Part shown: positions 63,926 to 63,953 of the stretch, piece by piece | Numbering within the stretch: the stretch's first letter is position 1 | Layout of the letters: every line of letters starts with the position of its first letter | Assembly: GCF_030013205.1 (NCBI RefSeq) | Contig: NZ_CP122648.1 | DNA length: 64,000 nucleotides | Strand: one strand, 5' to 3' | Source: Escherichia coli | GTDB lineage: Bacteria; Pseudomonadota; Gammaproteobacteria; Enterobacterales; Enterobacteriaceae | Notes under the pieces: model-generated | What the model was told of the DNA's origin: nothing | Database searches by the model: none | Seen by the model: only the letters and a program-made list of their open reading frames with translations | Position numbers and translations under genes: made by a program

Positions 63926-63953
63926 GTATGACGATTTTAAGTATTCGTCATAC
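63926..63953. promoter_or_regulatory. NikR operator upstream of nikA
   Basis: Exact match to GTATGA-N16-TCATAC: gtatga cgattttaagtattcg tcatac, 38 nt upstream of the nikA start. Confidence 0.8.

Follow-up and report, generated by a model that had tools for sequence, protein, structure and literature searches.

The NikR operator of the nikA promoter at the edge of a 64-kb stretch of an Escherichia coli chromosome

In E. coli, Ni(II)-loaded NikR binds the sequence GTATGA-N16-TCATAC in the nikABCDE promoter with nanomolar affinity (PMC7055735), and the same E. coli operator motif is given in PMC4486848. The operator is two-fold symmetric, and in the cis form of the NikR tetramer the antiparallel beta-strands of each ribbon-helix-helix domain enter the major groove of one half-site (PMC4486848, PMC6332059). 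For the enterobacteria, comparative genomics has led to the consensus GTATGAT-N13/14-ATCATAC, quoted in PMC545781. The NikR operators of Helicobacter pylori (ureA, nixA and others) belong to the same family, in that ribbon-helix-helix tetramers occupy two half-sites. However, H. pylori NikR is pleiotropic, binds to a consensus that is different and less strict, and can also act as an activator, whereas the E. coli operator is a single repressor site of high affinity. With respect to activation, nikABCDE of strain K-12 has an FNR ChIP-seq peak and is activated in an FNR-dependent manner, and the top-scoring FNR site lies at -40.5 from the known transcription start (Myers et al., PMC3688515).

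The whole stretch of DNA that was analysed, referred to here as the window, is 64 kb long. Within it, the motif GTATGA-N16-TCATAC has a single exact match, at 63926-63953, which reads GTATGACGATTTTAAGTATTCGTCATAC on the plus strand and GTATGACGAATACTTAAAATCGTCATAC in the direction of nikA (Table 1). We took the definition of the operator from reviews (PMC7055735, PMC4486848, PMC6332059) and from identity with K-12, where the site is credited to Chivers and Sauer 2000 in PMC7055735. By this definition, the site has two GTATGA hexamers in inverted orientation, with a 16-bp spacer and an overall length of 28 bp (PMC7055735). It belongs to the promoter of an operon for nickel uptake, 37 nt from the nikA ATG and probably overlapping the -10 element, it agrees with the characterised K-12 site in 28 of 28 bases, and the cognate repressor gene nikR is encoded in the window as well. 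The half-sites had been called exact NikR half-sites in a preliminary description of this DNA, and this is correct, since both the hexamers and their spacing match the published motif (PMC7055735, PMC4486848). The symmetry of the operator extends beyond the hexamers. Its arms are 13 nt long, 92% complementary and separated by 10 nt, and they contain a perfect 9-nt core (GTATGACGA/TCGTCATAC). A full-text literature search with the exact operator 28-mer returned no paper.

Table 1. Coordinates in the window of the nikA promoter elements, the nik genes and three genes of the haem cluster
Feature	Coordinates	Strand	Remarks
NikR operator of the nikA promoter	63926..63953	-	28 bases; unique exact match, K-12 identity and literature motif
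Promoter-distal half-site, GTATGA in the nikA direction	63948..63953	-	exact TCATAC on the plus strand
Promoter-proximal half-site, TCATAC in the nikA direction	63926..63931	-	exact GTATGA on the plus strand
FNR-like box, TTGATccagAACAG	63974-63961	-	8/10 to TTGAT-N4-ATCAA; 21 nt upstream of the operator
Putative -10 hexamer, TAAAAT	63934..63939	-	5/6 to TATAAT; predicted at -12 to -7, inside the operator spacer
nikA, periplasmic nickel-binding protein	62314..63888	-	524 aa, intact; ATG at 63888-63886
nikB	61370-62314	-	314 aa, full length; K-12 length, no internal stop
nikC	60540-61373	-	277 aa, full length; K-12 length, no internal stop
nikD	59776-60540	-	254 aa, full length; K-12 length, no internal stop
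nikE	58973-59779	-	268 aa, full length; K-12 length, no internal stop
nikR, repressor	58567-58968	-	133 aa, intact; K-12 identity, PDB match, NCBIfam
TonB-dependent haem receptor	18245-20227		
ChuW/HutW radical-SAM enzyme	15291-16628		
HutX-like protein	20276-21304		

The comparison with the characterised nikA operator, proposed in the preliminary description as a check, bears out the assignment. In K-12 MG1655 (NC_000913.3), the operator occupies 3613602-3613629, immediately upstream of nikA (3613667), and does not map elsewhere in the reference. All 28 bases are the same, including the 16-nt spacer, and the ATG follows at the same distance of 37 nt. The FNR box and the flanking acpT and nikABCDE-nikR genes are shared as well. 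For this K-12 sequence, nickel-dependent NikR binding and repression are established (PMC7055735). K-12 differs by three substitutions in the 47 nt upstream of the operator, which is the entire stretch between the operator and the end of the window, and by a residue of NikR, which carries D11N here. The operator had originally been placed 38 nt upstream of nikA. The position is right, but the gap (63889-63925) measures 37 nt, and 38 is the difference between the coordinates 63926 and 63888. Compared with the enterobacterial NikR consensus, the operator has the same inverted-repeat architecture of 27-28 bp with a GTATGA core. The two differ at position 7, which is C/G here (GTATGAC...GTCATAC) and T/A in the consensus, so that the site in the window has the E. 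coli-specific form. Judged by its sequence, the segment 63926-63953 is thus the characterised NikR operator in its canonical place, and as such it is already known.

The genes around the operator are those expected from K-12. The gene acpT lies upstream of nikA, and the intergenic region between them (63889-63998) is wholly within the window. The preliminary description was silent on the strand of nikA, which is on the minus strand and runs leftwards into the window. The NikA protein is identical to its K-12 counterpart in 520 of 524 residues and scores 837 bits against the NCBIfam model TIGR02294 (cut-off 393), and the gene is annotated as nikA in the matching genomes. NikR shares 132 of its 133 residues with K-12 NikR. 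The only change, D11N (codon at 58936-58938), is located in the N-terminal ribbon-helix-helix domain, which is the DNA-binding domain. Over its full length, NikR matches PDB entries 1q5v, 2hza and 2hzv (E = 8e-85), which are structures of the K-12 protein, and it exceeds the NCBIfam equivalog cut-offs of both NF002815 (233.7 bits, cut-off 83) and TIGR02793 (223.5 bits, cut-off 175.45). The operator had been taken as confirmation that the nik operon is correctly oriented and intact. The operon is indeed intact, because none of the genes nikABCDE and nikR is shortened relative to K-12 or interrupted by a stop codon, and their proteins show 97-100% identity to those of K-12. However, the operator is symmetric, and on its own it does not prove either property.

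The operator region is conserved throughout the species. A 301-nt query spanning the site matched 5425 of 5426 complete E. coli genomes at an identity of at least 95%. The matches were always chromosomal and always between annotated acpT and nikA, and the window can therefore be assigned to the E. coli chromosome. The operator together with 2 nt on each side was found exactly in 5299 of the 5426 genomes, and among the 5425 genomes with the region, about 126 contain no exact match to a 28-nt word across the operator. We aligned the window with K-12, with three strains from the low end of the similarity ranking, and with strain EC23-1020, which came from the operator search. The FNR box is invariant in these six E. 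coli strains, and the substitutions are located either upstream of the FNR box or between this box and the operator. The sole exception is EC23-1020 (NZ_CP168214.1, 277642-277870), a natural variant with ATATGA in place of GTATGA in the promoter-distal half-site.

A generic scan of 63700-64000 for sigma-70 promoters did not find a -35/-10 pair. This is as expected for a promoter that depends on an activator and has no good -35 element. As the scan is uninformative for a promoter of this type, the geometry was taken from the FNR box and the -40.5 position. The FNR-like box is the only site with at most two mismatches in the acpT-nikA intergenic region. In a class II FNR promoter the box is centred near -41.5; here, a box matching in 8 of 10 positions is present, and -40.5 has been published for K-12. 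When the published distance (PMC3688515) is applied to this box, +1 is predicted to be near 63927. The operator would then span about -26 to +2, and its promoter-proximal half-site would overlap the transcription start. Such a position, over the putative -10 hexamer as well as the start point, is consistent with a repressor that keeps RNA polymerase away. We infer that the promoter is of the FNR-activated class II type, and that it is repressed by promoter occlusion.

Taken together, the segment is almost certainly an operator for NikR, the nickel-responsive repressor, within a nikABCDE-nikR promoter that is probably occluded by the repressor and activated by FNR, and we found no evidence that contradicts its identification as a NikR operator. 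For the regulation, the following scheme can be proposed. When enough nickel is available, NikR, whose gene lies 5 kb downstream within the operon, would bind the operator as a Ni(II)-loaded tetramer. The two ribbon-helix-helix domains of the tetramer would occupy the major groove at the two GTATGA half-sites, which are two helical turns apart. Bound NikR would keep RNA polymerase out, and the synthesis of the nickel importer would be off. In the absence of nickel and under anaerobic conditions, FNR at the box near -40.5 would act as a class II activator. The site, its identity with K-12, the genes and the conservation are contributed by the present analysis, and the nickel-dependent binding, the tetramer geometry and the FNR occupancy come from the literature. 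The strain thus appears to keep the standard control of nickel uptake, NikR repression over FNR activation, with both transporter and repressor intact. For annotation, the operator is an anchor for the strand of the nik operon and for its limit near the right end of the window, but it does not bring new biology.

Another explanation is a role of the dyad at the RNA level. It could act mainly or additionally as a terminator or insulator hairpin for read-through from acpT, and thereby uncouple nikA. The two genes are co-oriented and only 110 nt apart, and a 51-nt RNA from the minus strand (63912-63962) is predicted to fold with -15.6 kcal/mol (z = -5.4), a value not reached by any of 200 shuffles. 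The hairpin is followed by UUAUUU, and it is located about 45 nt past the acpT stop codon. However, the fold is expected because the operator is symmetric, and any DNA dyad of 9-13 bp trivially gives a hairpin. Against a terminator, the loop is 10 nt long, the stem contains only 3-4 G-C pairs, the U-tract is short and interrupted, and a terminator scan of 63700-64000 did not call anything. Moreover, the nikA mRNA itself would not contain the hairpin if +1 is near 63927. An RNA hairpin or terminator is thus unlikely to be the primary function, and we regard an RNA role of the dyad in general as improbable. The chances are similarly poor for a dual role, in which one palindrome would repress nikA initiation and also serve as a weak terminator or insulator against acpT transcription.

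The site could also be the target of another regulator, such as the nitrate regulator NarL. The NarL heptamer has the consensus TACYYMT, and TACTTAA in the operator spacer agrees with it in 6 of 7 positions, which is weak evidence; a 6/7 match to a heptamer is common by chance. The gene nikA, which NarL is reported to repress, is listed among the NarL-regulated promoters without a detectable NarL site (PMC2718512). However, the arrangement of two hexamers around a 16-nt spacer is specific for NikR in the literature (PMC7055735, PMC4486848). NarL could therefore at most have an additional, overlapping site, and it is very improbable that it, or another regulator, defines the identity of the operator. 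Finally, that the palindrome is a functionless chance match is practically out of the question and is excluded by its identity in sequence and position to an experimentally characterised site, all the more as an exact match did not occur in any of 100 dinucleotide-preserving shuffles, the operator is exact in 5299 of 5426 genomes and accompanied by its repressor gene in the same operon, and the only near-match in the window (two mismatches, 54769-54796) is at chance level, with nothing that favours chance.

This near-match is the one extra site in the 64-kb window when up to two mismatches are allowed, and it is located within the Rhs gene. At this stringency, the shuffled sequences contained 1.94 matches on average, and 58 of 100 contained at least two. 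The count in the window equals the chance expectation, and 54769-54796 was rejected as a second NikR operator.

The Rhs element beside the nik operon had been described as decayed, which proved to be the case. The Rhs core next to nikR is split into an ORF of 1006 aa (55344-58364) and an ORF of 386 aa (54220-55380). In the RHS_core model, the two correspond to positions 1-1006 and 1015-1261, respectively. The break is a 16-nt deletion at about 55397, as judged against the intact core of 1409 aa in E. coli CFSAN018748. Downstream of the core, the window contains 768 nt (53479-54246) that have no counterpart in the CFSAN018748 locus, which is otherwise 99% identical. The region encoding the Rhs tip and immunity functions (51695-54666) differs from K-12.

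Several further differences from K-12 were noted elsewhere in the window. A 9-kb insertion between yhiD and dctR (12305-21364) is the chu island, which belongs to E. coli lineages other than K-12, and it carries a cluster for haem uptake and haem degradation. The operon on the chuT side encodes ChuW, an enzyme that degrades haem anaerobically, and in the divergent region that separates this operon from chuA there is a predicted FNR site with perfect consensus (TTGATTTTTATCAA, 17670-17683). This site is statistically weak, since one like it also arises in 14 of 100 shuffles, and a literature search on FNR control of chuW gave no paper clearly on the subject. About 1.6 kb (24402-25998) are absent from K-12. 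They contain an ORF of 337 aa (24663-25676) with weak similarity, well below the cut-off, to Cu/Zn efflux permeases of the SO_0444 family. The IS5 element that interrupts yhiS in K-12 is absent here, and an ORF of 407 aa (22859-24082) is open.
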